From: Candidatus Limnocylindrales bacterium
GTDB lineage: Bacteria; Chloroflexota; Limnocylindria; Limnocylindrales; CSP1-4
DNA length: 32,559 nt
Direction: 5' to 3'
NCBI GenBank assembly: GCA_031292335.1
Contig: JARLHH010000173.1
Coordinates: 1-32,559 of the forward strand
Of the stretch, positions 1,360-23,182 are shown piece after piece (within the stretch, counting starts at the first letter, position 1; every line of letters starts with the position of its first letter). The notes beneath the pieces are model-generated. The model did not search any database and was not told where the DNA came from. It worked only from the letters and a program-made list of their open reading frames with translations. The position numbers and the translations under genes were made by a program.

Positions 1360-2102
1360 AGGCGGACGGGCGACCACGTCGTTCCCTCCACGCTGCCCGT
1401 TGCCGTCGGCGCGCCCCGCGGGAGCGTGACGTACTCCGGGACCACCTGCGCGGGATCGTCGGAATCGCCCGCGGCGAGACGGACGGCACCCAGCCGGAGC
1501 AGGACCCCCGGAAGGCGGTCCGTTGCGGCGTCGCCGCGTGCCACGGCCGCACCAGGGGCTCGCCCGGCGAGATCCACCGCGACGAGCACCGCATCCGCCG
1601 GGAGGTCGGGCAGCGCCACGCCGATCACGAGCTGCGTCCCGGCCCGCGTCACGAGGTAGCGGCCGGACGGGCCGGCAGGCAGGAGCAGCGCGAGGCGCCG
1701 GCCGTCGGTGGCCGGGTCCGCCGCCTCCGCCGCGGCGAGCAGCGCGACCCCGCTTCCGATGGCGACCAGCGGGGTGCGGAACGCCACCGCGAGCGCTTTG
1801 GCGGTCGCCAGCCCGACCCGGAGCCCGGTGAAGGCGCCCGGGCCCGTCCCGACGACGATCCCCGCCAGGCCGGAGAGCGCGCCCCGGTCCCAGCCATGGC
1901 CGGCGAGCAGCGCCTCGAGGCGCGGCAGGAGCTCCTCCACGTGGCGATGCCCGGCCGGCCAGGTGTCGGCCGCGAGCAACGTCCCGTCGGCCGCCCCGAG
2001 GGCAAGGACGGTCCGTGACGTCGCGGTGTCGATGGCCAGCAGCATCCCGACGGTGCCGCGCACCCCCAGGCCAGCGTCTCCGGTCGCGTCGCCGGCCGTC
2101 AT
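1356..2102 (-). CDS. tsaB: tRNA threonylcarbamoyladenosine biosynthesis protein TsaB
   Basis: Contains MLLAIDTATSRTVLALG...GTGPGAFTGLRVGLATAKALA, the TsaB/YeaZ signature. ATG at 2102 overlaps the tsaE stop (ATGA). The alternative ATG at 2045 (MLLAIDTA) would remove a 19-aa N-terminal extension. Confidence 0.85.
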   Translation of the reverse strand: MTAGDATGDAGLGVRGTVGMLLAIDTATSRTVLALGAADGTLLAADTWPAGHRHVEELLPRLEALLAGHGWDRGALSGLAGIVVGTGPGAFTGLRVGLATAKALAVAFRTPLVAIGSGVALLAAAEAADPATDGRRLALLLPAGPSGRYLVTRAGTQLVIGVALPDLPADAVLVAVDLAGRAPGAAVARGDAATDRLPGVLLRLGAVRLAAGDSDDPAQVVPEYVTLPRGAPTATGSVEGTTWSPVRL

Positions 2103-2569
2103 GCCAGCGCCTCCAGCAGGCGGTGGTGGCGCGGGTCGGTCGCCCGGCAGGCCAGCGTCCGTGCGTGGTCGCCCGACCCCGCGAGCCGGATCTCGAGTCG
2201 CCCGGTCGGCAGGGCCGGCCCCAGGCGCTCGGCCCACTCGACCACGGTGACGCCATCGGCACCCCGCTCGTCGAGAAGCCCCGCGGCGAGCGCCTCCTCC
2301 GGGCCGGCCAGGCGATAGCAGTCGAGGTGGAACAGGGGCAGGCGCCCTTCGTGCTCGGACAGCAGGACGAACGTGGGCGAGGCGACCGGGCCCACCACGC
2401 CGAGGCCGCGGGCGATGCCGCGGGCCAGCTCGGTCTTGCCGGCCCCCAGCGGGCCGGTCAGCGCGATGACGTCCCCGGCGGCGGCGGCACGCCCGAGTCG
2501 CTCGCCGAGCGCACGCATGGCGGCTGGGTCGGGAGCGACAAGACGAAACTCCGGCGGGGCGGCGTTCAT
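2099..2569 (-). CDS. tsaE: tRNA threonylcarbamoyladenosine biosynthesis ATPase TsaE
   Basis: 156-aa ORF with the Walker A motif LTGPLGAGKTELARGIARGLG followed by SPTFVL...HLDCYRL, the TsaE/YjeE signature. It lies immediately upstream of tsaB. Confidence 0.9.
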   Translation of the reverse strand: MNAAPPEFRLVAPDPAAMRALGERLGRAAAAGDVIALTGPLGAGKTELARGIARGLGVVGPVASPTFVLLSEHEGRLPLFHLDCYRLAGPEEALAAGLLDERGADGVTVVEWAERLGPALPTGRLEIRLAGSGDHARTLACRATDPRHHRLLEALA

Positions 2570-2578
2570 CCCCAGAGC

Positions 2579-3595
2579 CTACCGGTTGGCGGCGCCGACG
2601 GAGAACCGCTCCAGGTCCCCGATCGCGATCGGCAGCGTGCGGCCGTCGTCGAGGGCCACCAGCCCGGTCTCGACCACGACGCCTCCGCGCAGGCGACGCG
2701 GGCCCCCGGGTCCCAGCCAGCGGCCCTCGCTGCCGGCCGCCTGGCCACCCCGGACGACCACGCGGTCGGGCTCCGGGAACGGCAGCAACCGGTCCGCCGG
2801 CAGGAGCAGCAGCGGAGGATCGCCGACGGTCCCGACCAGCGCCCCGGAGACCGCCTCCAGGACAGCCTGGACCGCCGAAGGGAAGGCGCGCCGGAGATAC
2901 CCGCCGAGCACGAGCACCCCGAAGGACGCCAGGTGGTGCGGGCCGGCCTGCTGGCGGGCCGCCGAGGCCGCAAGGTCGCGTCGATCGCGCTCGGCGAGCG
3001 ATCCGACGACCACGCCGTGGATTCCCATCGCCCGGGCCCGGGTGATCGCCTCCGCATCCACCCGGCCCGGCATGACCACCACCGCGCCGGCGAGCGCGAC
3101 GTCGAGCGCAAGGTGCGGGTCGGAACCCTCCGGCAGCAGGACCAGGCGGCCCGCGTGCGGCTCCCCGAGCAGCTCGGTTGCGACCAGGCCCGGCCCGTCG
3201 ATCTCGAGCACGAGCGCAACGCCTGGGTGCACCTCGACCAGGCGGCCGTCCGCGGGGGCGCTGAGATGGTCCGGGTGCGAACCGGTCGCCAGGCGCCGCC
3301 GCCCGCCGTGCTCGAAGAGCAGCTCGCCGGGTGGCGTGCCGGGGCGACGGCCGGGTCGCGCGTGCTCGCCGGGCAGCCAGGTGCCGGGGAGCGGGATCCC
3401 CTGGTCCGCCCCGTGCCGGGGCAGCACCACCTCGACCAGCCGGGGGTCGCGGATTCGCTCCGCCAGCACGTCGCCGGCGTGGACGGCATCGCCGATCTCG
3501 GCGATCACGCGATCACCCGGCTGCAGCTCCAGGCGGACGCGCGGTCGCGGAACGAGGAGCGCCCGGGGCGGGACCAGGTCCAGCGTGCCGGTCAC
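2579..3595 (-). CDS. Hypothetical protein, 338 aa, no family recognised. It may contain barrel-sandwich (lipoyl/biotinyl-like) hybrid motifs.
   Basis: This is the C-terminal third of the 942-aa ORF 2579..5407. Upstream of 3595 that frame becomes Arg/Pro/Gly-rich junk overlapping the 571-aa gene. GTG at 3595 overlaps the upstream stop (GTGA), and a GGAG lies ~10 nt upstream. Amino-acid composition is normal and GC3 is high. Segments LQPGDRVIAEIGDAVHAGDVLAE and SAPADGRLVEV resemble hybrid-motif halves. Confidence 0.6.
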   Translation of the reverse strand: MTGTLDLVPPRALLVPRPRVRLELQPGDRVIAEIGDAVHAGDVLAERIRDPRLVEVVLPRHGADQGIPLPGTWLPGEHARPGRRPGTPPGELLFEHGGRRRLATGSHPDHLSAPADGRLVEVHPGVALVLEIDGPGLVATELLGEPHAGRLVLLPEGSDPHLALDVALAGAVVVMPGRVDAEAITRARAMGIHGVVVGSLAERDRRDLAASAARQQAGPHHLASFGVLVLGGYLRRAFPSAVQAVLEAVSGALVGTVGDPPLLLLPADRLLPFPEPDRVVVRGGQAAGSEGRWLGPGGPRRLRGGVVVETGLVALDDGRTLPIAIGDLERFSVGAANR

Positions 3596-5307
3596 GCGTC
3601 GCGCTCCGGCCACAGGGCAGCTTCCCAGGTTCCGAGCAGCTCGCGCCGGCGGTCGGGGCGCTCCGGCAGCCGGAGCGGGATGTCTCGCAGGTCGAGCAGG
3701 AGGCCGGCGAGGCCGCCGGTGACCGGGATCTGGAAGCGGCGGCCGCGCGGCCCGAGATCGGGGGTTCCGCGGAAGGAGAGCTCGGCCGTGCCGCGCGCGC
3801 CGGGCGGAAGGTCGACGAGAGTCAGGCCGCCCGCCACGAGGTCGACCTCGGAGCGCCCGCCGCTCGTCGTGAGCGCGAGCTGCCCGGCCAGCCGGTTCGG
3901 TCGCATGCCACGCGGCGTGACGACCGTCCCGAGTCGCAGGAGCAGGTCCTCGGCCAGGTCCGCGACGAGCGCGTCCCGTTCCGCGTCGTCGTCGATCGTC
4001 CCGATCGGGCCAAGGAGCCGAGCATGGTCGATCGCGATCTGCATCGCCCCCGGCCGGCGGATGACGTCGGCGATGACGTGGGCGGCCGCGGGGCCGGGCA
4101 CCGCGGACCACGCCCCACCGGCGCCGATCACGAGATCCACGCTGCCGTCGCCGAGCACGGGCACGGTCGCCACGAGGAGGCGCTCCAGCGCGGCGCGGAG
4201 GGCGGCTCCCCGGAGCAGGGCGCCGTCTCCCTCGAGATCGCTCCACGGCGCCATCGCCAGCTCCGCCAGCCGGTCCCGCAGGCGGGCCCGGTCCAGGCCC
4301 TGCGTGAACCAGTAATCGACCCGGTCGATCGCCCCGGGACTGCTCACCCGGAACAGCGCCGCCTCGGGCGCCTCCAGGACCTCGACGCGCACGCCGCTCC
4401 CGCCGTCGGGGCGCGGCGAGGCGAGGATGCGCGTCGCTCCCGCGACGCCGATCTCGAGGATCTCCACCCGCAGCCCCAGGACGCGGGCAAGCGAGCCGGC
4501 GGCCGCGGCGATCGCGCGTCGGCTGTCGGTCGGACCACGGCGAGCGTCCGCCAGCGCCATCCGCAGGTCCGAGGCTGCCGGCTCCCCGGGCGCGCGGGCC
4601 GGCGCCGCGAGCCGCACCAGGTCCGGGTCGCGCAGGATGTCGAGCAGCGGCGCTTCCGGGATGGGTCCCGCCAGGAAGATGCGCATGCCAGGGCGTCGGG
4701 CCGCGATCCCGGCCGCCGCGACCGCCAGCTCGGCGGCCAGGTCCCGCTCGTCGGAATCGGGCGGATCGGCCACACCGACGAGGAGGGCCGCCACGCCGGG
4801 GCGCGTCGCCATCCGGGTGAGCTCGAGCGGATCCGTCCGCTCGGCGCTGCCCGCCACGACGTTCCAGCCGGCTCCCGCCGCGGCCTCTTCCAGCAGAGCG
4901 CGGGTGCGCTCGGTCGCCGCGATGACGGCGAGCGTCGCGGCCGGCACGCTCCGCGCCATCAGCCGGGGCAGGTCGAGGAGCTCGTGCCCGCCCCCCGGCC
5001 GGCCCAGGGCCGCCTCGACAAGATCCGGGTCCGCGGCGCGGAGACGATCCACGAGCAGCCGGGTGAGGGCATCCCGGTCGCTGCCGGCAGGGAGCGCCGT
5101 GGCCGCCAGCAGGCGCCAGCGTCCGTCGACGCGACCGACGATCGCGCCGGCGAGCGTCGCCGTTCCCTGGTCGAGGGTCACGAAGGCGCCGTGCGGATCG
5201 GCGGCACCAGCCGGGGTCACGCTCGGGGAAGGCAGGGAGGCGGCCCCGGGCGAATCGGGCCCGCGGTCGTCGAGGGGACCGGCAGGTTCCGCCTCGGCGC
5301 GGCTCAC
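3592..5307 (-). CDS. GlmL/MutL-like (glutamate mutase accessory, hydantoinase-branch ASKHA fold) protein, 571 aa, with no mutase partner nearby
   Basis: GTG start at 5307 overlaps the upstream stop (GTGA). After a ~40-aa disordered N-terminus, several segments match the motif order I remember for the GlmL/MutL family: VTLDQGTATLAG resembles ASKHA phosphate-1 DxGST; RIFLAGP follows; LEIGVAGATRIL resembles DIGGATTD; then VDLVIGAGGAW; and the C-terminus has VTGGLAGLLLDLRDIPLRLPE. The assignment is from memory, not from a search. Confidence 0.55.
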   Translation of the reverse strand: MSRAEAEPAGPLDDRGPDSPGAASLPSPSVTPAGAADPHGAFVTLDQGTATLAGAIVGRVDGRWRLLAATALPAGSDRDALTRLLVDRLRAADPDLVEAALGRPGGGHELLDLPRLMARSVPAATLAVIAATERTRALLEEAAAGAGWNVVAGSAERTDPLELTRMATRPGVAALLVGVADPPDSDERDLAAELAVAAAGIAARRPGMRIFLAGPIPEAPLLDILRDPDLVRLAAPARAPGEPAASDLRMALADARRGPTDSRRAIAAAAGSLARVLGLRVEILEIGVAGATRILASPRPDGGSGVRVEVLEAPEAALFRVSSPGAIDRVDYWFTQGLDRARLRDRLAELAMAPWSDLEGDGALLRGAALRAALERLLVATVPVLGDGSVDLVIGAGGAWSAVPGPAAAHVIADVIRRPGAMQIAIDHARLLGPIGTIDDDAERDALVADLAEDLLLRLGTVVTPRGMRPNRLAGQLALTTSGGRSEVDLVAGGLTLVDLPPGARGTAELSFRGTPDLGPRGRRFQIPVTGGLAGLLLDLRDIPLRLPERPDRRRELLGTWEAALWPERDA

Positions 5308-5594
5308 GCGTCCCAGACCGACTCCTCGTCGAGCTCCTCGAGTCGATCGAGCAGCTGCTCGATGCCAGCCTCGTCGGCCAGCAACGCGCTCGCGGGTGCG
5401 CTGCCACCCCCGAAGATCTGGCGCAGGACCGGGTCGAAGAATGTCATCGCGCTGCCCGCCAGCCCGCCGTCCGGCATGCTCGCATGGAGGAAGAGGACTG
5501 CCGGCCCGGTCATGCCGGAAAGCTGGATCTCGCGCGCCACCTCCTCGACGAGGGCGGCCCGCTGCTCGTCACCTGGGAGCACGGGAAACGTCAC
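5304..5594 (-). CDS. Hypothetical small acidic protein, 96 aa
   Basis: GTG start at 5594 overlaps the macro-domain gene stop (GTGA), and its own stop overlaps the next start (GTGA). Third codon positions are almost all G/C. The composition is not Arg/Pro-rich, and the C-terminus is acidic (LLDRLEELDEESVWDA). I recognise no family. Confidence 0.55.
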   Translation of the reverse strand: MTFPVLPGDEQRAALVEEVAREIQLSGMTGPAVLFLHASMPDGGLAGSAMTFFDPVLRQIFGGGSAPASALLADEAGIEQLLDRLEELDEESVWDA

Positions 5595-6121
5595 GCCGGC
5601 ACCCCGGCCGGGACGGCCTCGGCGGCCGCAAGCGCGAGGCGGAAGGCCTCGTACGCCGCCGCACCGCGCAGGGCGAGCGTCACGCGAACGACCCGCGGCG
5701 AGCGAGCCAGCTCGGCGCGGACCGCGGCGACCGTCACCCGGGCCGCCTCCGCGATCGGGAAGCCGCCCACGCCGGTCCCCAGGGCCGGGATCGCGAGCGT
5801 CTCCACGCCGAGATCCCGAGCGTGCACGAACGCACTCCGGATGGCGCGATCGATCGCCCCGGCGTCCGTGCGGCGTACCTGGTCGAGCGAGACGGCGTGG
5901 ATCACCCAGCGAGCCGCCAGCGATCCCGCGCCCGTCACGATCGCGTCGCCCACCTCGGCGGGCCCCTGTCGGACCGCGGCGAACTCGATCGCGTCACCGC
6001 CCCGGCGCTTGACCGCGCCCGCGACGCCCGTTGCCATCCAGAGACTTGGGCTTGCCGGGCTCACGATCGCGTCCACCTCGAGGTCGCAGATGTCGCCGTT
6101 CCAGATCGCGATGTCTGCCAT
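5591..6121 (-). CDS. Macro domain protein (ADP-ribose / O-acetyl-ADP-ribose binding or hydrolase family)
   Basis: 176-aa ORF reading GDICDLEVDAIVSPASPSLWMATGVAGAVKRRGG...VTGAGSLAARWVIHAV...LAIPALGTGVGGFP. This matches the macro-domain layout GDIT..DAIVNAAN..GGGV....IAFPaIstGvyG, but with Ser in place of the first Asn. Confidence 0.8.
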   Translation of the reverse strand: MADIAIWNGDICDLEVDAIVSPASPSLWMATGVAGAVKRRGGDAIEFAAVRQGPAEVGDAIVTGAGSLAARWVIHAVSLDQVRRTDAGAIDRAIRSAFVHARDLGVETLAIPALGTGVGGFPIAEAARVTVAAVRAELARSPRVVRVTLALRGAAAYEAFRLALAAAEAVPAGVPA

Positions 6122-7395
6122 GGCCCCCGGTCCTGCGTGAGCGTGCGAATACCGACCGCGTCGGCCGGCGAAGTGTACACCCGGGGTAGGCGCGCAGCCA
6201 TCGTGGCAAGCACCTCCCAGCTGATCGTGGCGCGCTCGCGCGCCACCTCGCCGGCGGTGATCCGCTCGGCACCTTGCTCGCCGAGGAGGACGAACTCGTC
6301 ATCGGGCGTGACGGGCGGTCCGCTCACGTCCGTGACGTCGGCCATCACGGCGTCCATCGCGACCGTCCCCACGAGCGGCACCCGGGCGCCACGAACGAGC
6401 GCCGTCGCGCGGTTCCCCAGGGCGCGGATCCAGCCGTCGGCGTAGCCGACCGGCAGCGTCGCGATCCGGCTGGGGCGCGCCGTCACGAAGCTGGGCCCGT
6501 ACCCCACGCCCTCCCCGGCGGGCAGCTCTGCGACGCGGACCGGTCGGGCGTGCAGCGAGAGGACCGGCCGCAGCGCGGCGCTGATCGCGCTCGCCGCCCT
6601 CCCGATCCGGAGCCCTTCCGGTTCGATCCCGTAGAGCGACAGGCCGACCCGAACACCATCGAAGATCGGCGCGGTGCCGGCGACGAACCGCTCGACCCCG
6701 AGCAGGCCACCCGAGGCCAGGAGGTGGCGATGCGGCACCGGCAGCCCCGCCGCAACCAGGGCCTGCACGGCGGCCCTGAACCGATCGACCTGGCGGGCGG
6801 TCCGGACCGTGTCCTCGGGCGCCTGGAGATGCGACCACACTCCCTCGAGACGTGCGCCTGGAACGCCGGCGAGCCCGCGCGCTGCCGCGATCGCCTGGTC
6901 CGGCCGCAGGCCGTCGCGGCCCAGCCCGGTCTCGAGGCAGATGTGCACCACCAGGTCGCCCAGCCGACCGTGGGCGCGTCGCCCGGACCGGGTGTAGGCG
7001 GCCAGGCCCCGCGCCCAGAGGAGGTCATCCCCGGCCGCCAACGAGATCCGGGCTCGGGCAGCCGCGCCGAAGCCGTCCGGCGGAATCGGGAAGAGCACGA
7101 GGATCGGCGCATCCAGGCCGGCCGCGCGGAGCTCGAGCGCCTCGTCCAGCGTCGCGACGCAGAGCCCGTGCGCTCCGGCGGCCAGCGCGGCATGCGCGAC
7201 CGGCACGGCCCCGTGGCCGTATCCGTTGGCCTTCACAACGGCCTCGAACAGGGCGCCGGGAGGCAGCGCCGCCCGGATCGCCCCGATGTTCCCGGCCAGC
7301 CGTCCAAGGTCGATCTGCAGCCAGGCGGTGCGCGGCAGCGGCGGGAGCCCGGCGGCACGCAGACGCTCCTCGATCGGCGCCGCAGGGTCGGTCAT
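6061..7395 (-). CDS. alr: Alanine racemase
   Basis: The PLP-lysine motif AVVKANGYGHGA is present, along with PVGYADGW, VGTVAMD and a near-terminal RLPRVY. ATG at 7395 overlaps the nnrD stop (ATGA). The upstream part of ORF 6061..7572 is Arg-rich junk. The frame stays open 36 aa beyond RVY and overlaps the macro gene by 61 nt. Confidence 0.9.
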   Translation of the reverse strand: MTDPAAPIEERLRAAGLPPLPRTAWLQIDLGRLAGNIGAIRAALPPGALFEAVVKANGYGHGAVPVAHAALAAGAHGLCVATLDEALELRAAGLDAPILVLFPIPPDGFGAAARARISLAAGDDLLWARGLAAYTRSGRRAHGRLGDLVVHICLETGLGRDGLRPDQAIAAARGLAGVPGARLEGVWSHLQAPEDTVRTARQVDRFRAAVQALVAAGLPVPHRHLLASGGLLGVERFVAGTAPIFDGVRVGLSLYGIEPEGLRIGRAASAISAALRPVLSLHARPVRVAELPAGEGVGYGPSFVTARPSRIATLPVGYADGWIRALGNRATALVRGARVPLVGTVAMDAVMADVTDVSGPPVTPDDEFVLLGEQGAERITAGEVARERATISWEVLATMAARLPRVYTSPADAVGIRTLTQDRGPWQTSRSGTATSATSRWTRS

Positions 7396-8396
7396 TCGGC
7401 CGGGTGCCCGAACCCGAGCCTTCCGGCCCCTGCCCGCCGCGCGACGTCGACCGCCAGGCGGTGGCGGGCGCGGGCGATCTCGTAGGGAAGGTCGCCCGCC
7501 AGCAGCCCGGCGTCCCCGACGCGGTGCCGCACGGCCTCGCCGGCCATCCCGTGGAGCTGCACGCCCAGGCACGCGGCCGCGTACGGGGCGAGGCCCTGGG
7601 CCAGCAGGCCGCCGATCGTCCCGGCCAGGACGTCGCCGGTGCCGCCGGTCGCGAGCGCGGGGTTCTCGAACGTTGCCACGGCCGCGGCACCGTCCGGGGC
7701 CGCGATGACGGTGTGGGCGCCCTTCAGGACCACGACCTGGCCCCAGGCGTTCGCCGCGTCGCGGGCAGCCTCGAGCCGCGCGGCATCATCGCCGGCGAGG
7801 TCGCCGTCGGCCCCGCCGGCAATCCCCCCCGCCGCTCGCAGACGGCCGAACTCTCCGACGTGCGGCGTGAGGACGCACGGCCGGATCACGCCCTCCCACC
7901 AGCCGTCCTCGGCCGCCAGCGAGCGGAGCGCCTCCGCGTCGACCACGGCAGGCGTCGCGTCATCCTCGACGCGCGCCGCGAGGATGCCCCGGATCAGCGC
8001 GGCCGACGCCAGCGACGGACGCAGGCCCGGCCCGACGACCAGGGCATCGTGCTCGTGATCGAGGATCCGGGCCAGGGCGGGCACCGGGTCGACCTCCTCG
8101 ACGTCGTCCTCCTCGAGCGCCAGGGTGGTTGCCTCGACGACCTTCGCCGCGAACAGCGGCTGCAGGGATTCGGGCACCGCGAGCGTGACGAGACCGGCTC
8201 CGACGCGGCCTGCCGCCCGGCAGACGAGCAGGGCCGCCCCCGCATAGTCGAGCGAGCCGGCCATGACGAGGAGCTTGCCGAAGGTGCCCTTGTGGCCGCG
8301 GCCCGGCCGCTCCGGCAGGAGCAGGCCGGCGCTCCGCTCGTCCAGGCGAGTCGCGTCCGGACGTCCGGGCCCGGAGTGGATCGGCTCGTCAGGCAT
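7392..8396 (-). CDS. nnrD: ADP-dependent (S)-NAD(P)H-hydrate dehydratase (YjeF C-terminal / carbohydrate-kinase-like domain only)
   Basis: 334-aa ORF containing GHKGTFGKLLVMAGSLDYAGAALL, LTPHVGEFGRL, VVLKGAHTVIA and ATGGTGDVLAGTIGGLLAQG, the YjeF_C signature. No N-terminal epimerase domain is present. Confidence 0.85.
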   Translation of the reverse strand: MPDEPIHSGPGRPDATRLDERSAGLLLPERPGRGHKGTFGKLLVMAGSLDYAGAALLVCRAAGRVGAGLVTLAVPESLQPLFAAKVVEATTLALEEDDVEEVDPVPALARILDHEHDALVVGPGLRPSLASAALIRGILAARVEDDATPAVVDAEALRSLAAEDGWWEGVIRPCVLTPHVGEFGRLRAAGGIAGGADGDLAGDDAARLEAARDAANAWGQVVVLKGAHTVIAAPDGAAAVATFENPALATGGTGDVLAGTIGGLLAQGLAPYAAACLGVQLHGMAGEAVRHRVGDAGLLAGDLPYEIARARHRLAVDVARRAGAGRLGFGHPAE

Positions 8397-8937
8397 GGCG
8401 GTCTCCCTCCTTCACGCTCGCGGCGAGCGACGCGGCCTCGCGTCCCAGCCCGCGAAGGCGGTCCATCCGGCGGACCAGGGCCGCCTCGCGCTCCCCCAGC
8501 CGATCCTCGATGTCAGGCGGGAAGACGTAGCGGCCGCCCGCGGTCCTGACGCCGAAGGCGATGGCGAGGGCGTACTCACGCTCGTGGGTGATGCTGACCG
8601 CGATCCGCGCCAGCCCCAGCTGGTCGGCCCGGGCAGCCGCCCGCCCGTGCAGGAGGACGGCCGGCTGGCCGGTGGGCAGCCGCTCGATCTCGATATCCAG
8701 CCAGCCGATCCCGCGCACGCCGAGCCCGAGCACCTTGCTCACCGCTTCCTTGGCCGCCCACCGGCCGGCGAGCGTCTCGGGGCGACCGCGCACGTAGCCT
8801 GCCTCCCGCTCGGTGAGCACGCGCCGGACGAAGCGATCGCCGAAGCGCGCCAGGGCCTCGCGGATCCGCTCCACGCGGATGATGTCCAGCCCGAGCTCGG
8901 CGGTGCCGTCGGGAACCCGGGGGTCCGGGGTGGCCAT
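8389..8937 (-). CDS. acpS: Holo-[acyl-carrier-protein] synthase (4'-phosphopantetheinyl transferase) with a ~50-aa C-terminal extension
   Basis: Contains LGLDIIRVERI...RVLTEREA......LAGRWAAKEAVSKVLG...SITHEREYALA, which is AcpS-like. The protein is 182 aa, against the usual 120-130. Its stop overlaps the nnrD start by 8 nt. Confidence 0.85.
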   Translation of the reverse strand: MATPDPRVPDGTAELGLDIIRVERIREALARFGDRFVRRVLTEREAGYVRGRPETLAGRWAAKEAVSKVLGLGVRGIGWLDIEIERLPTGQPAVLLHGRAAARADQLGLARIAVSITHEREYALAIAFGVRTAGGRYVFPPDIEDRLGEREAALVRRMDRLRGLGREAASLAASVKEGDRHA

Positions 8938-8940
8938 CCG

Positions 8941-10770
<1,830 letters not shown>

Positions 10771-10818
10771 GCCGTCGAGAGCCTCCGTCGCGCCAACCGG
10801 ACCTCGATGGCCGCGGGG

Positions 10819-12150
10819 CTAGTTTAGGCGGTCGCGCGCGAGCGCCGCGAGCTCGTCCGCGAGCGCCGCCACGAGCTCCGGGTCGGGGCCTTCCACCATG
10901 ACGCGCAGGGCGGGCTCCGTGCCGGACGGGCGAACGAGGATGCGCCCGCCGAGCGGCAGCCGGGCCTCCGCGGCGACGATCGCCCGCCGCAGCTCGGGAT
11001 CCGCCTCCCACTGTTCCTTGTGGCGCACGTGGATCGCGCGCTGCTCCTGCGGGAAGAGCGGGATCCGGGCGGCGAGCTCGTCGATCGGCCGGCCGACGCG
11101 GCCGATGATGCCCAGGACCTCCAGGGCGGTGACCAGGCCATCGCCCGACGTGGCGTGGTCCCGGATGATCACGTGACCGCTCTTCTCGCCGCCGAGGTTC
11201 GCGCCGGTCACCTGCATCCCGTCGAGGATGTACTTGTCGCCGACGGGCGTTCGGACGACCTGCCCGCCGAGCGCGCCGAGCGCGGACTCGAGGCCGCCGT
11301 TGGAGAGGACCGTGACGACCAGGATGCCGCCGTCGAGCGCCCCGCGGGCCAGCCGATCCAGGGCACACAGCCCGAGCAGCTGGTCGCCGTCGACGACCTG
11401 CCCATGGCGATCCACCACCACCAGGCGGTCCGCGTCGCCGTCGAGCGCGAACCCCAGGTCGGCTCCCCTGGCGGTGACCTCCCGGGCGAGGTCGGCGGGC
11501 GCCGTGGCGCCGCAGCGAACGTTGATGTTCTCCCCGTCCGGATGGTTGTGCAGCACGTCGACCCGCGCGCCGGTTGCAGCCAGGATCTCGGGGGCCGTCA
11601 CGCCGCCGGAGCCGTTCGCGCAGTCGAGGACGAGGTGCAGGTCGCACGGCGTCGCGGCGGCGAGACGGAGGCGGTCGGCCCGGTAGCGATCGACGAGCGC
11701 GGACGCCTCGAACAGCCGTCCGATGCCGCTGTTCCGCGGGCCGCCCAGCTCCTCGGTCCGCCAGATGAGCTGCTCAAGCCGGTCCTCCTCGGCGTCGTCC
11801 AGCTTGAGGCCCCGCCCATCGAGCACCTTGAGCCCGTTGTCGTCGGCCGGATTGTGCGAGGCGGACACCATGATCCCGGCGGAGAACGACTCCGTGCCCG
11901 CCAGGAAGGCAAGCGCGGGCGTGGGGAGAACGCCCGCGTCGTGCACGTCGGCCCCCAGGCTGGCGGCGCCGGCCGCGATGGCCGCCACGAACATCTGGCC
12001 CGAGCGGCGCGTGTCGCGGCCCACGACCAGGCTCCCGCCGAGGTTGACGAGCTCATGGGCGGCTGCCCTGCCCAGCGCATAGGCGACCGTGGGCCGCAGG
12101 TCCACGTTGGCGACGCCGCGAATCCCGTCCGTCCCGAAGAGCCGGCCCAT
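10819..12150 (-). CDS. glmM: Phosphoglucosamine mutase
   Basis: 443-aa ORF starting MGRLFGTDGIRG. It has the phosphoserine loop SASHNPADDNG, the metal loop DGDADR and the motif GGEKSGH. Confidence 0.96.
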   Translation of the reverse strand: MGRLFGTDGIRGVANVDLRPTVAYALGRAAAHELVNLGGSLVVGRDTRRSGQMFVAAIAAGAASLGADVHDAGVLPTPALAFLAGTESFSAGIMVSASHNPADDNGLKVLDGRGLKLDDAEEDRLEQLIWRTEELGGPRNSGIGRLFEASALVDRYRADRLRLAAATPCDLHLVLDCANGSGGVTAPEILAATGARVDVLHNHPDGENINVRCGATAPADLAREVTARGADLGFALDGDADRLVVVDRHGQVVDGDQLLGLCALDRLARGALDGGILVVTVLSNGGLESALGALGGQVVRTPVGDKYILDGMQVTGANLGGEKSGHVIIRDHATSGDGLVTALEVLGIIGRVGRPIDELAARIPLFPQEQRAIHVRHKEQWEADPELRRAIVAAEARLPLGGRILVRPSGTEPALRVMVEGPDPELVAALADELAALARDRLN

Positions 12151-12152
12151 GA

Positions 12153-13412
12153 TCAGGGCACCCCGGGCGGAATCGTCGCCGGTGGCGGCGTGGTGAGGCT
12201 GGCTGGGGTCACGGTGAGGCTGACCTCGGCGGGTGACAGCGCGTCAACGGTCAGGCCGGGGGGCGGGCTGACCTCCGGGAAGACGATCTGCGTGCCCGGC
12301 CCGAGACCGGCGACGTCCACGCTCGCAACAAGCGTGGACGCATCCAGCGCGTTGAGCACCGCGAGCGGGCCGCCCAGGGTGACGATGATCTGCCCGGTGG
12401 CGAGACCGTAGCCGGTCGCCGGGTCGGCGTTGACCAGTGTCACGCCCGCCTGGAACGACCGCGTGGCGAGCTGCGGGCGGATCGACACGGTCACCCGCAC
12501 CGTGGTGACCCCCAGGGCCGAGACGCCGGGGGGGAGGTTGAGCCCGACGTCGGCGACGACATCGGCGGTCGCGCCGGCGATCGAGACCGGTTTCGTGTCG
12601 ATGTTCACGAGCGGCGCGAGCAACGCCGAGCCCGCCTCGACCGTCACGAGAAGCGGCGCTGCCTCCACGCCGGTGACGACCGCCGAGGCATCCGGGCTGC
12701 CGCTCACGACCGGGTTGACCGGAAGGGCGCGCGTGGACAGCTGGCTGCCGATCTGGATCGTCACCCGGACGGAGCTCGGCTGCAGCTCGATCGTCGGGAC
12801 CACGTCGCCGCGCGCATCGACGGCGATGAGGTCCACGGCCTGGTTGATGTCGATCCCGGAGGGCTGGATCTGGACCCGGGCCTGGGCCGCCGCCACGAGC
12901 ACCACAGACGACTCGGGACCGGTCACGGTGACGGTGTCCTGGGAGACGACCGGCTCGCGGACGTCCAGGCCGGCCGGCACGGTCCCGTGGTCGACCTGCA
13001 CCGGGACCGTCTTGCTGACAAGGGGATCGAGCCGCACCTGGATCCGCGACGGGCTGAAGTCGATCACCTGGATGTTGCTGGGATCCGTCGCCCGGACGAT
13101 GACCGGCACGCTCACGGGCGGCGATCCGGCGGCCACCGGCACCCCGGACAGGTCGATCGTCGCGCTGAAGCTGGCGGTCGTGACGGCCGGCCGGTTCGTC
13201 CCGATGGCGAGGTACCGGATCGAGGTGACGTCGTCGAGGTTGCCGATGATGAAGGCGTTGCTCGGCTGGTTCAGCACCTGGATGGGAATGTGGCCGGGGA
13301 ACGTCTCGGCGCTGGCCGACACGATCAGGCCCACATAGAGGAGCGCGGCGAGAAGAATCGCCGCGAGCTTCAACGGCCAGTTGCGGAAGACGAAGCCGAC
13401 GGCGCGACGCAC
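12153..13412 (-). CDS. cdaR: CdaR / YbbR-domain regulator of diadenylate cyclase
   Basis: GTG start at 13412. It has an N-terminal TM helix (WPLKLAAILLAALLYVGLIV) followed by repeated beta-rich YbbR-like modules (V.V.V......V.....P..V.V.GP). Its position between cdaA and glmM matches the B. subtilis cdaA-cdaR-glmM operon. Confidence 0.8.
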   Translation of the reverse strand: MRRAVGFVFRNWPLKLAAILLAALLYVGLIVSASAETFPGHIPIQVLNQPSNAFIIGNLDDVTSIRYLAIGTNRPAVTTASFSATIDLSGVPVAAGSPPVSVPVIVRATDPSNIQVIDFSPSRIQVRLDPLVSKTVPVQVDHGTVPAGLDVREPVVSQDTVTVTGPESSVVLVAAAQARVQIQPSGIDINQAVDLIAVDARGDVVPTIELQPSSVRVTIQIGSQLSTRALPVNPVVSGSPDASAVVTGVEAAPLLVTVEAGSALLAPLVNIDTKPVSIAGATADVVADVGLNLPPGVSALGVTTVRVTVSIRPQLATRSFQAGVTLVNADPATGYGLATGQIIVTLGGPLAVLNALDASTLVASVDVAGLGPGTQIVFPEVSPPPGLTVDALSPAEVSLTVTPASLTTPPPATIPPGVP

Positions 13413-14524: not shown

Positions 14525-15472
14525 TCAGGTCGGGGCGAACCGGGGATCGTCCGGGAACGCCGCCCGGGCGGCGGCGGCCACGCGCTCGTGGGTCGCCGGA
14601 TCGCCATCGATCTCGGCGAGCCGCAGGAGGCTGCGGTAGGTGTCCCCGGCCGGTCCGACCGCGCCGCGCTCCAGCGCCAGCTCCGCGATGAGCAGGTGGA
14701 GGCCGACGTCGTCGGGGCCCGAGCCCAGGCCGCGCGTGCACGCGTCAAGCGCGGCAACCGGATGGTTCGCGTCGCGGAACGCGTGGGCGGCGGAGATCGC
14801 TGCCGTGACCGCGCCGGGGGCGTCACCGCGGGCGGCCGCTTCCTCCGAGGCAAGCAGGAACGCCTCGCCCTGCCTGGCGGGATCGGGCGGCGCGGTCCGG
14901 GCGACGGCCGGCTCGGGCGGGGCCGGCTCCGGGGATGTGGCCGGTTCCGCGGGCAGCGGCTCGCCCTGGGCGGGCTCGGTCTCCAGGTAGCGCAGCGCCC
15001 GGGCCAGGGCGCGTTCCGCCTCCGCCGCGCCGACCGCCTGGCGGAGCTCGTCGGCCAGCTCCTGGTAGCGCTGACGGCGCGCCGCCGTCGGCTGAATCTC
15101 CAGGGCACGCCGAAGCGCGTCGCCGGCATCGGCGTGCCTGCCGGCGGTCCGGCGCGCATCGGCGAGCGTGTCGAAGGTCGCCGCCGCATCGTCAGGCCGC
15201 TCCAGCACGACCAGCGCCTGGGCACGGCCCAGGAGCGCGGCATCGTCGGCAGGTGCCAGGGCCAGCGCCTCATCGAACGTGGCGAGCGCCTGCTCGGGCT
15301 GGCCGAGCCGGAGCTGGACGGAGCCGAGCGCCGTGCGAGGCACGGCCCGATCGGCGGCGAGCAGCGCCGCCTCGCGGTACGAGGCTGCCGCGTCCTCCAG
15401 CCTGCCCCGCAGGACAGCCACGTGCCCGGCCCGCAGGACCTCCCGGTAGCGATCGAAGAGGGAGTCGCTCAT
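14525..15472 (-). CDS. TPR-like repeat protein, 315 aa, function unknown
   Basis: Helical Ala/Leu/Arg-rich repeats with TPR-like periodicity (e.g. LGQPEQALATFDEALALAPADDAALLGRAQALVVLERPDDA). A central Pro/Glu-rich linker reads EPAQGEPLPAEPATSPEPAPPEPA. A GAGGAG lies 13 nt upstream of the ATG. GC3 is high. Confidence 0.6.
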   Translation of the reverse strand: MSDSLFDRYREVLRAGHVAVLRGRLEDAAASYREAALLAADRAVPRTALGSVQLRLGQPEQALATFDEALALAPADDAALLGRAQALVVLERPDDAAATFDTLADARRTAGRHADAGDALRRALEIQPTAARRQRYQELADELRQAVGAAEAERALARALRYLETEPAQGEPLPAEPATSPEPAPPEPAVARTAPPDPARQGEAFLLASEEAAARGDAPGAVTAAISAAHAFRDANHPVAALDACTRGLGSGPDDVGLHLLIAELALERGAVGPAGDTYRSLLRLAEIDGDPATHERVAAAARAAFPDDPRFAPT

Positions 15473-21898: not shown

Positions 21899-23182
21899 TC
21901 ACCGGATGAACCCCTCGTAGTTGCGCATCATCAACTGCGCTTCGAGCTGCTTCATCGTCTCGACCACGACCGACACGACGATCAGGATGCTGGTGCCTCC
22001 CAGGGAGAGGCCGGACAGGCTTGGGATGAACGCCTGGAACACGAACGGCGCCACCGCCACGATCCCCAGGAACAGCGCCCCGGCGACCGTGATCCGGTTG
22101 ACCACGCGGGCCAGGTAGTCCTGGGTCGGCCGCCCCGGCCGGATGCCGGGTATGAAGCCGCCGTTCTTGCGGAGCTGCTCGGCGGTCTCGTCGGGCTTGA
22201 ACGTGAAGGCCGTGTAGAAGTACGTGAAGCCGACGGTGAGCAGGAAGTAAAGCGACCCGTAGACCACCAGGTTGGATGGCCCGAAGGTGTTCACGAAGAA
22301 CGTCGCGATATCCGCCACGACCGTCACCTGGCTCTGGGCGAAGTAGCCCGCGATCTGGCTGGGGAAGAGCAGGATGCTCACCGCAAAGATGATCGGGATG
22401 ACGCCCGCCTGGTTGACCCGGAGCGGCAGGAACGTGGTGCCGCCCTGGTACATCCGCCTGCCCCGGACGCGGCTCGCGTACTGGATGGGGATGCGCCGCT
22501 GACCCTCGGTGATGAACACGATCGCGCCGACCGCGAACACGGCGAAGACGGCGAAGATGGCGAGGGCGACGAAGTTGGGCGAATCGAGGAACGTCCCGAG
22601 CGCCTGTGGCACGCGACCGACGATCCCGGCGAAGATCACGAAGCTGATGCCGTTGCCAATCCCCTTCTCGGTGATCAGCTCGCCGATCCACATCAGCAGG
22701 ATCGAGCCGGCCGTCAGGCTGACGATCTGGGTCAGCGTCCCGAACGATGCGAGGTCGAAGGTCGTGTTGAGCACGCCGGCCTGGTTGAGGACCGCGAGGA
22801 AGCCGTAGCTCTGGAGGATCGCCAGCGGCACGGTGAGGTAGCGGGTGTACTGGTTGATCTTGTTGCGCCCGTACTCACCCTCGCGCTGGAGCGCGGTGAG
22901 GGCGGGTACCACGCCCGTCATCAACTGCATGATGATCGACGCGTTGATGTACGGGTTGACGCCCAGGCCGACCACGGAGAAGCGCGACAGGCCGCCGCCG
23001 GAGAACAGGTCGAGCAGGCCGAAGAGCGCGTTGCCGTTGAAGAACGCGGCCAGCTTCGTCGGGTCCGCCCCGGGAACCGGGACGTGGGCCAGCGCCCGGA
23101 ACACGATGAGGGCGCCGAGGACGAACAGGATGCGCCGCCGGATGTCCGGCGCGCGGAAGGCGTTGAGGATGGAGTCGAACAC
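21899..23182 (-). CDS. secY: Preprotein translocase subunit SecY
   Basis: 427 aa, polytopic. It contains PDIRRRILFVLGALIVFR...LGVNPYINASIIMQL...GGFIPGIRPG, which is SecY. Confidence 0.97.
   Translation of the reverse strand: MFDSILNAFRAPDIRRRILFVLGALIVFRALAHVPVPGADPTKLAAFFNGNALFGLLDLFSGGGLSRFSVVGLGVNPYINASIIMQLMTGVVPALTALQREGEYGRNKINQYTRYLTVPLAILQSYGFLAVLNQAGVLNTTFDLASFGTLTQIVSLTAGSILLMWIGELITEKGIGNGISFVIFAGIVGRVPQALGTFLDSPNFVALAIFAVFAVFAVGAIVFITEGQRRIPIQYASRVRGRRMYQGGTTFLPLRVNQAGVIPIIFAVSILLFPSQIAGYFAQSQVTVVADIATFFVNTFGPSNLVVYGSLYFLLTVGFTYFYTAFTFKPDETAEQLRKNGGFIPGIRPGRPTQDYLARVVNRITVAGALFLGIVAVAPFVFQAFIPSLSGLSLGGTSILIVVSVVVETMKQLEAQLMMRNYEGFIR

Follow-up and report, generated by a model that had tools for sequence, protein, structure and literature searches.

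A conserved gene pair between alr and tsaE in Candidatus Limnocylindria encodes a predicted ASKHA protein and a protein of no named family

A block of four genes lies between alr and tsaE in a 32,559-nucleotide stretch of DNA from a Candidatus Limnocylindrales bacterium of the phylum Chloroflexota (contig JARLHH010000173.1 of assembly GCA_031292335.1; the whole stretch is called the window here). All four are on the minus strand. In order from alr they encode a 176-residue macro-domain protein of family PF01661 (macro, 5591-6121), a small and very acidic 96-residue protein (p96, 5304-5594), a 571-residue protein that appears to be a divergent ASKHA protein of the GlmL/MutL family (p571, 3592-5307), and a 338-residue protein that matches no family (p338, 2579-3595). 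The gene before the block, alr (6061..7350, minus strand), was identified by Pfam Ala_racemase_N (172 bits), Ala_racemase_C (132 bits), and TIGR00492 (257 bits), and the gene after it, tsaE (2099-2569, minus strand), by PF02367 (116.6 bits) and TIGR00150 (94 bits).

A preliminary description of the window, made from the sequence without database searches, had listed these four open reading frames (ORFs) and their junctions, and its coordinates proved exact when the sequence was read directly. The end of alr overlaps the start of macro out of frame by 61 nt (6061..6121, minus strand). The three junctions within the block are 4-nt GTGA stop/start overlaps at 5591-5594, 5304-5307, and 3592-3595, and a 9-nt spacer (2570-2578) separates the p338 stop codon from the tsaE ATG at 2569. 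The p338 start is the GTG at 3595, which sits within a longer stop-free frame; the alr start near 7350 is approximate, since that ORF is open to 7572. A pattern scan of positions 1800 to 7600 found no sigma-70-like promoter and no intrinsic terminator. The p96/p571 (5304-5312) and p571/p338 (3592-3600) junctions carry the identical sequence GACGCGTGA, so p96 and p571 both end in Asp-Ala. The TGA stop codon of alr arises from the Val-Ser codons within the DAIVS motif of macro, and the final ~37 residues of Alr extend past the racemase domain.

The GC contents of the four ORFs by codon position (0.76 to 0.88, 0.45 to 0.58, and 0.87 to 0.91) equal those of the neighboring genes, so that the host-like third-position value noted earlier holds for all four. 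We then calculated ratios of nonsynonymous to synonymous substitution (dN/dS) by the Nei-Gojobori method against six relatives with 73 to 93% protein identity. The ratio was 0.21 to 0.25 for p571, 0.19 to 0.28 for p338, 0.10 to 0.28 for macro, and 0.04 to 0.11 for p96, against 0.21 to 0.26 for alr and 0.13 to 0.23 for tsaE as controls. Purifying selection, which had been proposed as a check on the block, is present throughout (0.04 to 0.28), and these values show that the four ORFs are real genes under selection comparable to that on alr and tsaE. Neither lysine nor cysteine occurs in the 1005 residues of p96, p571, and p338 combined. We dropped the idea that a lysine-free trio is a special trait because lysine is scarce in the entire window (0.2 to 1.6% in most proteins and 3.9% in RpoA); its absence from the trio is probably an effect of GC composition. 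It follows that no lysine is functionally needed in p571.

We looked across the Genome Taxonomy Database (GTDB), taking one genome per species, and recovered 52 loci, of which 51 were in Chloroflexota metagenome-assembled genomes (MAGs) encoding the p571 family. The 52nd, from Thermoanaerobaculia, was a weak 90-residue match (E = 2e-4) and was disregarded. In tblastn mapping, the order nnrD-alr-macro-p96-p571-p338-tsaE was found in essentially all of the GTDB loci, down to 40% p571 identity. A metagenome search with a p338 profile, restricted to the top 80 loci (identity of 41% or more) and so not addressing presence outside the clade, returned the identical arrangement in 80 of 80. In all, the same arrangement was seen in ~130 related loci, down to 40% identity, and tsaE lay downstream of p338 in every locus with sufficient flank. 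The gene neighborhood survey suggested in the preliminary description thus found homologs of p338, p571, and p96 together between alr and tsaE in relatives. Because the arrangement is conserved across related loci (51 of 52 in GTDB species and all 80 from metagenomes), the four ORFs are, as the preliminary description had supposed, old residents and not recent imports. The block is a lineage-specific yet ancient fixture of a housekeeping operon in the class Ca. Limnocylindria.

Protein searches gave 235 matches for p571, 267 for p338, and 218 for p96, and wherever a source was named it was Chloroflexota or Ca. Limnocylindrales. The homologs were unnamed or "hypothetical," except for a p96 homolog whose JGI label is evidently spurious. 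When 1.84 billion representative proteins were searched with a p571-family profile, 861 relatives emerged, some of them full length with scores of only 110 to 145 bits. A tblastn search of 72,556 plasmids with p571 gave no match.

The junctions themselves are also conserved. The 4-nt overlap between p571 and p338 was present in 48 of ~53 related loci, deep ones included, that between macro and p96 in 41, and that between p96 and p571 in 40; alr and macro overlapped by 61 nt in 32 loci and by 4 nt in 7. The p338-tsaE spacer was the sole variable junction, ranging from −4 to 254 nt. Most exceptions to these counts come from contigs with evident frameshifts. In four loci (L049, L053, L054, and L061) the p571, alr, or macro frames are split or shifted, which probably reflects faulty assembly or indels in long reads and not loss of gene function.

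The block had been presented as a fixed set of four genes. That holds in most relatives, but not in macro-less species or in the deeper lineages, which have the pair only. The macro gene is missing or reduced at L003/L014, L020, L024, L032, L040, L044, L111, and L120 and also at L056, L058, L059, and L062. On the contig shared by L003 and L014, macro is cut to a 41-residue ORF (L003 positions 7592-7717) that keeps both the 61-nt overlap with alr and the 4-nt overlap with p96; it looks like an internal deletion that spared the coupling signals. In L044 and L110, alr is not at the junction, but tsaE still comes directly after the module; nnrD directly precedes p96 in L044 and macro in L110. The deep loci L058, L059, and L062 read acpS-nnrD-alr, a GlmL-like gene of 536 to 561 codons, a gene of ~350 codons, and tsaE-tsaB-rimI, without macro and p96. 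Since the deeper lineages have only this pair at the alr-tsaE junction, p571 and p338 form the core, p96 is an ancient but dispensable companion, and macro is a later, facultative addition.

The deep MAG L056 has a different arrangement. Its alr-tsaE junction holds a gene for an 85-residue p96 homolog (39.5% identity; blastp E = 2.5e-12), four membrane-protein genes, a GlmL-like gene, and a gene for a 342-residue p338 homolog; the NCBI label there is "glutamate mutase L [Ca. Limnocylindria bacterium]." The membrane-protein genes, at L056 positions 4862-10714 between the p96-like and GlmL-like genes, encode a 282-residue protein matching Pfam DUF6754 (30.7 bits against a cutoff of 27) and proteins of 204, 261, and 214 residues of no family. 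None of the membrane proteins had a homolog in the other 141 fetched loci, and a literature search for DUF6754 gave no match. The idea of a membrane machine drawn from L056 was therefore set aside as a one-genome variant.

We also compared distance matrices from 33 genomes for 21 gene pairs. The p571-p338 correlation was the highest of the 21 (r = 0.972; partial r = 0.74 after subtraction of the housekeeping background), a signal that is weak evidence because species pairs are not independent, and it agrees with the universal 4-nt overlap of the two genes. Partial correlations of macro with p571 and p338 were moderate (0.57 and 0.56), and those of tsaE were ~0 with p571 and 0.12 with p338. An hhalign comparison of p571 with p338 found no relationship between the two proteins.

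The preliminary description had called p571 a GlmL/MutL-like protein with an ASKHA fold. An AlphaFold (AF2) model built from a 30-sequence alignment had a mean predicted local distance difference test score (pLDDT) of 84.8 and a predicted template modeling score of 0.86. In the model, a disordered N-terminal segment (residues 1-40) precedes ASKHA domain I, into which an alpha/beta domain of five strands is inserted (~115-233); ASKHA domain II (~281-455) follows, and then a C-terminal beta domain of seven strands (457-539) and a final helix (551-565). A Foldseek search of the Protein Data Bank (PDB) with this model gave 116 matches at E ≤ 1e-3, and the 50 listed were all ASKHA proteins. The best among those listed was the acetophenone carboxylase beta subunit (5l9w_b, E = 1e-7), and others were PilM, glycerol kinase, a BcrA/D-type reductase subunit, acetate kinase, and Hsp70s. 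The TM-scores of these matches were low (0.2 to 0.3), as expected for a multidomain model. Model and structural matches together show that p571 is predicted to have the duplicated RNase-H-like ASKHA fold, which bears out that part of the earlier call.

The GlmL/MutL part of the call stood only at a distance: p571 matches no GlmL/MutL model, but remote homology to the family can be traced through distant members. The family profile A1 finds the full-length distant members P0488, P0459, and P0501 (E = 1e-26 to 1e-35), and these in turn match PF13941 MutL (cutoff 27) at 86.5, 43.5, and 39.7 bits, jointly covering model positions 2 to 448. Residues 9-215 of P0488 align to positions 2-196 of the MutL model, and residues 304-425 of P0501 align to positions 326-448. 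The profile matches thus show a homology of p571 to GlmL/MutL that is transitive, by way of P0488, P0459, and P0501. Even P0488 lies far under the cutoffs for GlmL itself (41.5 against 204 for TIGR01319 and 38.7 against 475 for NF040745). By these alignments, p571 is a remote relative of GlmL/MutL (PF13941, TIGR01319, NF040745) and not itself a GlmL.

The likeness to GlmL/MutL lies in the predicted ASKHA fold, in putative DxG[TS] and GxG nucleotide motifs, and in the alignment, in distant members, of the N-terminal ~200 residues with their inserted alpha/beta domain and of the end of domain II. In the extended p571 family (26 to 60% identity), G48 and G287 do not vary, and D46, D391-L392, and G397 hardly vary. 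E285 of the window protein, two residues before G287, the presumed phosphate-2 glycine, is D or E in A1 and is not retained throughout A5. Judged by their position in the strands of the model only, the conserved residues appear to coincide with the phosphate-1, phosphate-2, and adenosine motifs of ASKHA proteins. GlmL/MutL proteins have a single architecture of ~450 residues, whereas p571 has a further ~115 C-terminal residues, a beta domain and a helix, that are the most conserved part of its family. The densest invariant block, GG..GL..D.RD.PL.LP.R...RR..L..W (invariant at G531, G532, G535, D539, R541, P544, P548, R550, and W561), falls here, outside the MutL model. Unlike GlmL/MutL, p571 is always paired with p338, and its gene does not lie among mutase subunit genes (glmS/glmE, oraS/oraE).

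For p338 the preliminary description could name no family, and neither could we: direct searches of Pfam, NCBIfam, PDB sequences, PADLOC, and PHROGs gave no family. Its AF2 model (pLDDT 79.2) has a beta-rich N-terminal part (~10-155) with one or more putative sandwich-barrel-hybrid domains and a disordered loop (55-90), a small alpha/beta domain (~165-265) bearing the invariant motifs AE.L.RARAMG..G and F..L.L.G, and a C-terminal KOW/SH3-like barrel (~278-333). Foldseek matched the model to Thermotoga maritima NusG (2xhc, E = 1.8e-4), to KOW-bearing ribosomal proteins, and to Spt5; KOW-bearing chains scored a probability of at least 0.97, yet E-values of 0.02 to 0.1. Against viral structures, Foldseek found only small KOW-domain proteins. 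The p338 profile A3, run against PDB sequences, matched the Thermus RNA polymerase (RNAP) beta' insert (2auj_D, E = 0.0025) over residues 21-129, uL24/eL26 (E = 0.026 to 0.04) over residues 272-328, and NusG domain II (E = 0.057). The deep p338 homolog in L059 matched RPOC_hybrid (E = 1e-4) and RnfC_N (E = 5e-3), and one homolog matched Pfam KOW at E = 5.2. Sequence-profile and fold matches are thus consistent, though marginal, in suggesting a hybrid barrel at one end of p338 and a KOW-like barrel at the other. The central domain had weak and nonspecific Foldseek neighbors, RraA-like and PA domains (E = 0.03 to 0.09). A NusG-like NGN-KOW architecture was considered and its NGN part dropped, as hhalign of A3 against Escherichia coli NusG (a sequence entered by hand) gave a probability of 0.3%; Pfam NusG also had no match in nine p338 homologs. 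From its sequence, p338 is probably soluble and cytoplasmic, a judgment made by reading and not with a predictor.

The 96-residue acidic protein was much as first described. It has a pI of 4.1, 17 Asp/Glu residues, and no Lys or Cys, ends in an invariant W-D-A, and matched no family in Pfam, NCBIfam, PDB, PADLOC, or PHROGs. All 218 homologs are ~96 residues long. It is the most conserved gene product of the set (mean column identity of 71% in alignment A4), and Limnocylindria relatives are 61 to 92% identical to the window protein. Conservation of the C terminus may be imposed in part by the overlapping start region of p571 or by a nucleotide constraint from translational coupling.

The macro-domain assignment was borne out by PF01661 (78.4 bits against a cutoff of 22, residues 20-129). 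The best NCBIfam scores, 99 to 103 bits, lie below the equivalog cutoffs of 200 to 252, and by this measure the protein is probably not an O-acetyl-ADP-ribose deacetylase of the MacroD/YmdB type. It reads SPAS and VSPASPSLWMATGVAGAV at the positions where MacroD enzymes have NAAN...GGGV. Weak matches were found to DarG in PADLOC (2.9e-4) and to phrog_2613 in PHROGs (1e-6). Neither library matched p571, p338, or p96, so no defense-system or phage-family membership was found for them.

The block sits in the operon cdaA-cdaR-glmM-glmS-acpS-nnrD-alr-[block]-tsaE-tsaB-rimI-tsaD. On the minus strand, glmS (8941-10770) comes immediately after glmM and is followed by acpS (8389-8937) and a carbohydrate-kinase gene of the nnrD type (7392-8396); beyond tsaE are tsaB (1356 to ~2021) and rimI (811 to ~1350). 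In Actinomycetota, the same flanking genes occur in the same order as an alr-tsaE-tsaB-rimI-tsaD array, Rv3423c-Rv3419c in Mycobacterium tuberculosis. The comparison with M. tuberculosis made in the preliminary description is sound for the flanking genes and their order, but it is only an analogy across phyla, this genome being from Chloroflexota, where two to nine genes are intercalated at the junction.

Contrary to what had been stated, the block is not the only part of the window outside textbook housekeeping genes: a gene for a 315-residue TPR-repeat protein lies between rpsI and cdaA (14525-15472, minus strand). An Rfam scan of the whole window found no family at threshold, so there is no recognizable glmS ribozyme upstream of glmS (8941-12150 region). 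Two plus-strand gene candidates, at 10828-12411 over glmM and 22503-22808 over secY, look like antisense-frame artifacts; every other gene called by codon-position GC is on the minus strand. GC content falls from ~0.77 in the operon studied here to ~0.67 to 0.70 in the part with the ribosomal-protein genes, secY, adk, map, and rpoA.

What might the pair do? The reading that we prefer, tentatively and as one that falls short of probable, is an ATP-driven, chaperone-like complex of p571 and p338. The two proteins would assemble stoichiometrically, and ATP binding and hydrolysis by the ASKHA domains of p571 would drive conformational work, either on p338 itself or on a client bound to it. The cycle would be chaperone- or "reactivase"-like, as proposed for GlmL, EutA, and the diol dehydratase reactivase, with p96 as a possible adaptor or regulatory subunit. 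The client would be something other than a B12 mutase encoded nearby: no B12 mutase gene was found in the 32.5-kb window, as the preliminary description had said, or near any related locus examined. Chaperone-like action is generally proposed for GlmL, EutA, and DdrA. The adenosylcobalamin reactivases DdrA/DdrB and EutA also offer a conceptual likeness, a large ASKHA ATPase with a small (~100-residue) subunit encoded side by side, but they are absent from the top 50 Foldseek matches of p571, and no B12 enzyme is nearby here.

Several points weigh against such a complex. Searches of Pfam and NCBIfam (E ≤ 1) and of PDB sequences with p571 gave no match, so that no GlmL model was reached directly. 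The assignment of an ATP site in p571 derives from our reading of an alignment, and the distance-matrix correlation carries the weakness already given. Foldseek and profile searches with p338 brought up no protein known as a client or a co-chaperone. Even canonical GlmL is poorly characterized.

The best placed of the alternatives, though we think it unlikely, is that the pair is an accessory of the N6-threonylcarbamoyladenosine (t6A) machinery (TsaE/TsaB/TsaD), of translation, or of ribosome biogenesis, with the KOW-like and hybrid-barrel domains of p338 serving to dock it on RNA or the ribosome. The constant presence of tsaE after p338 fits this idea, as do the 4-nt overlap of p338 and tsaE in L059 and L040 and the persistence of the module beside tsaE in L044 and L110, where alr has gone from the junction. 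However, insertion into an ancestral alr-tsaE junction already predicts adjacency to tsaE, the p338-tsaE junction is the only variable one, and the partial distance correlations with tsaE are ~0 for p571 and 0.12 for p338. TsaB and TsaD are likewise ASKHA proteins (by a Pfam match for TsaD), and domains like KOW and those of RNAP beta' and NusG domain II are typical of transcription and translation proteins. Against this, the likeness of the ends of p338 to the RNAP beta' insert, T. maritima NusG domain II, and the KOW domains of uL24, eL26, and Spt5 is marginal (E = 0.003 to 0.06), an NGN domain is unsupported, and the central alpha/beta domain with its invariant motifs has no counterpart in those proteins.

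Slightly less likely again is a two-subunit, ATP-dependent enzyme of the hydantoinase/oxoprolinase/acetone carboxylase type with a small metabolite as substrate, for instance in metabolite repair. The closest structural match to p571, acetophenone carboxylase beta, points this way: it and hydantoinase A are multidomain ASKHA proteins with a second subunit, and the GlmL family is described, in its TIGR01319 and Pfam annotation, as related to the hydantoinase A branch. The neighbors nnrD (NAD(P)HX repair) and macro, and a RidA-type gene further downstream in relatives, would also suit repair. But p571 has no match to these enzymes at the sequence level, the TM-scores of its ASKHA matches are low, p338 is unlike the hydantoinase B, oxoprolinase, and carboxylase partner subunits, and no metal-binding or catalytic motif was identified.

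We regard as improbable, a shade below the enzyme, a cell-envelope or membrane-associated machine tied to the supply of peptidoglycan precursors. The operon, with cdaA, cdaR, glmM, glmS, and alr, and with glmU downstream in relatives, is of a suitable kind, PilM, an ASKHA protein of a membrane complex, is among the top structural matches of p571, and the four membrane-protein genes of L056, one with DUF6754, lie between the p96-like and GlmL-like genes. Those genes have no homolog in the other 141 loci, however, and are absent from L058 and L059, to which L056 is most closely related. Reading of p96, p571, and p338 revealed no transmembrane segment or signal peptide (no predictor was used), and alr is sometimes missing from the junction.

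An ADP-ribosylation-controlled module, in which macro would strip ADP-ribose from p96 (or from p571 or p338) and so switch the complex, seems to us very unlikely. Macro and p96 are coupled by a 4-nt overlap in 41 loci, p96 offers 17 Asp/Glu per 96 residues, and the partial correlations of macro with p571 and p338 are 0.57 and 0.56. Yet macro is missing in at least 8 species and in all deep lineages, where the pair persists; the block contains no ADP-ribosyltransferase; and macro has SPAS in place of the MacroD NAAN and reaches no equivalog cutoff. The least likely account is that the module is a true reactivase for a B12 mutase encoded elsewhere in the genome, for while the family is related to GlmL/MutL and NCBI calls P0488 "glutamate mutase L," no mutase or B12-binding gene was found in the window or within 7 to 10 kb of any gene-listed locus, the GlmL equivalog scores are far too low (38.7 against 475 and 41.5 against 204), and GlmL has neither the additional C-terminal domain nor an obligate partner like p338.

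A bolder version of our preferred chaperone-like complex would make p571 and p338, perhaps with p96, a class-wide housekeeping machine, either an ATP-driven ASKHA chaperone for a core process such as synthesis of t6A, assembly of the ribosome or RNAP, or synthesis of envelope precursors, or a nonorthologous stand-in for a task that a universal protein performs in other bacteria. In such a machine, p338 and p96 would have folds or architectures without a described family; we give this only a small chance. Given the relationship of p571 to ASKHA proteins and GlmL, the block is not categorically new, and many lineages have conserved hypothetical genes of their own. The partner proteins and the context away from mutases are undescribed in all of the libraries searched, within a limited coverage of the literature that leaves room for a recent description. 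A genomics paper on Limnocylindria (PMC13212565) does not mention the four genes.

Members of the Limnocylindria are abundant in soils and lakes, and we know of none that is cultured and genetically tractable. If the function of the pair turned out to be ordinary, for example, that of a lineage-specific assembly factor, the gain would go no further than improved annotation of ~200 to 270 "hypothetical" protein clusters per family. The relationship traced here extends the GlmL/MutL family beyond the operons of B12 mutases and gives a second, independent context in which to view a poorly understood branch of ASKHA proteins. A pair that evolves as housekeeping genes do, is embedded in an operon with essential roles, and has been retained in all of the genomes examined is a probable sign that this class carries out some core process in its own way.

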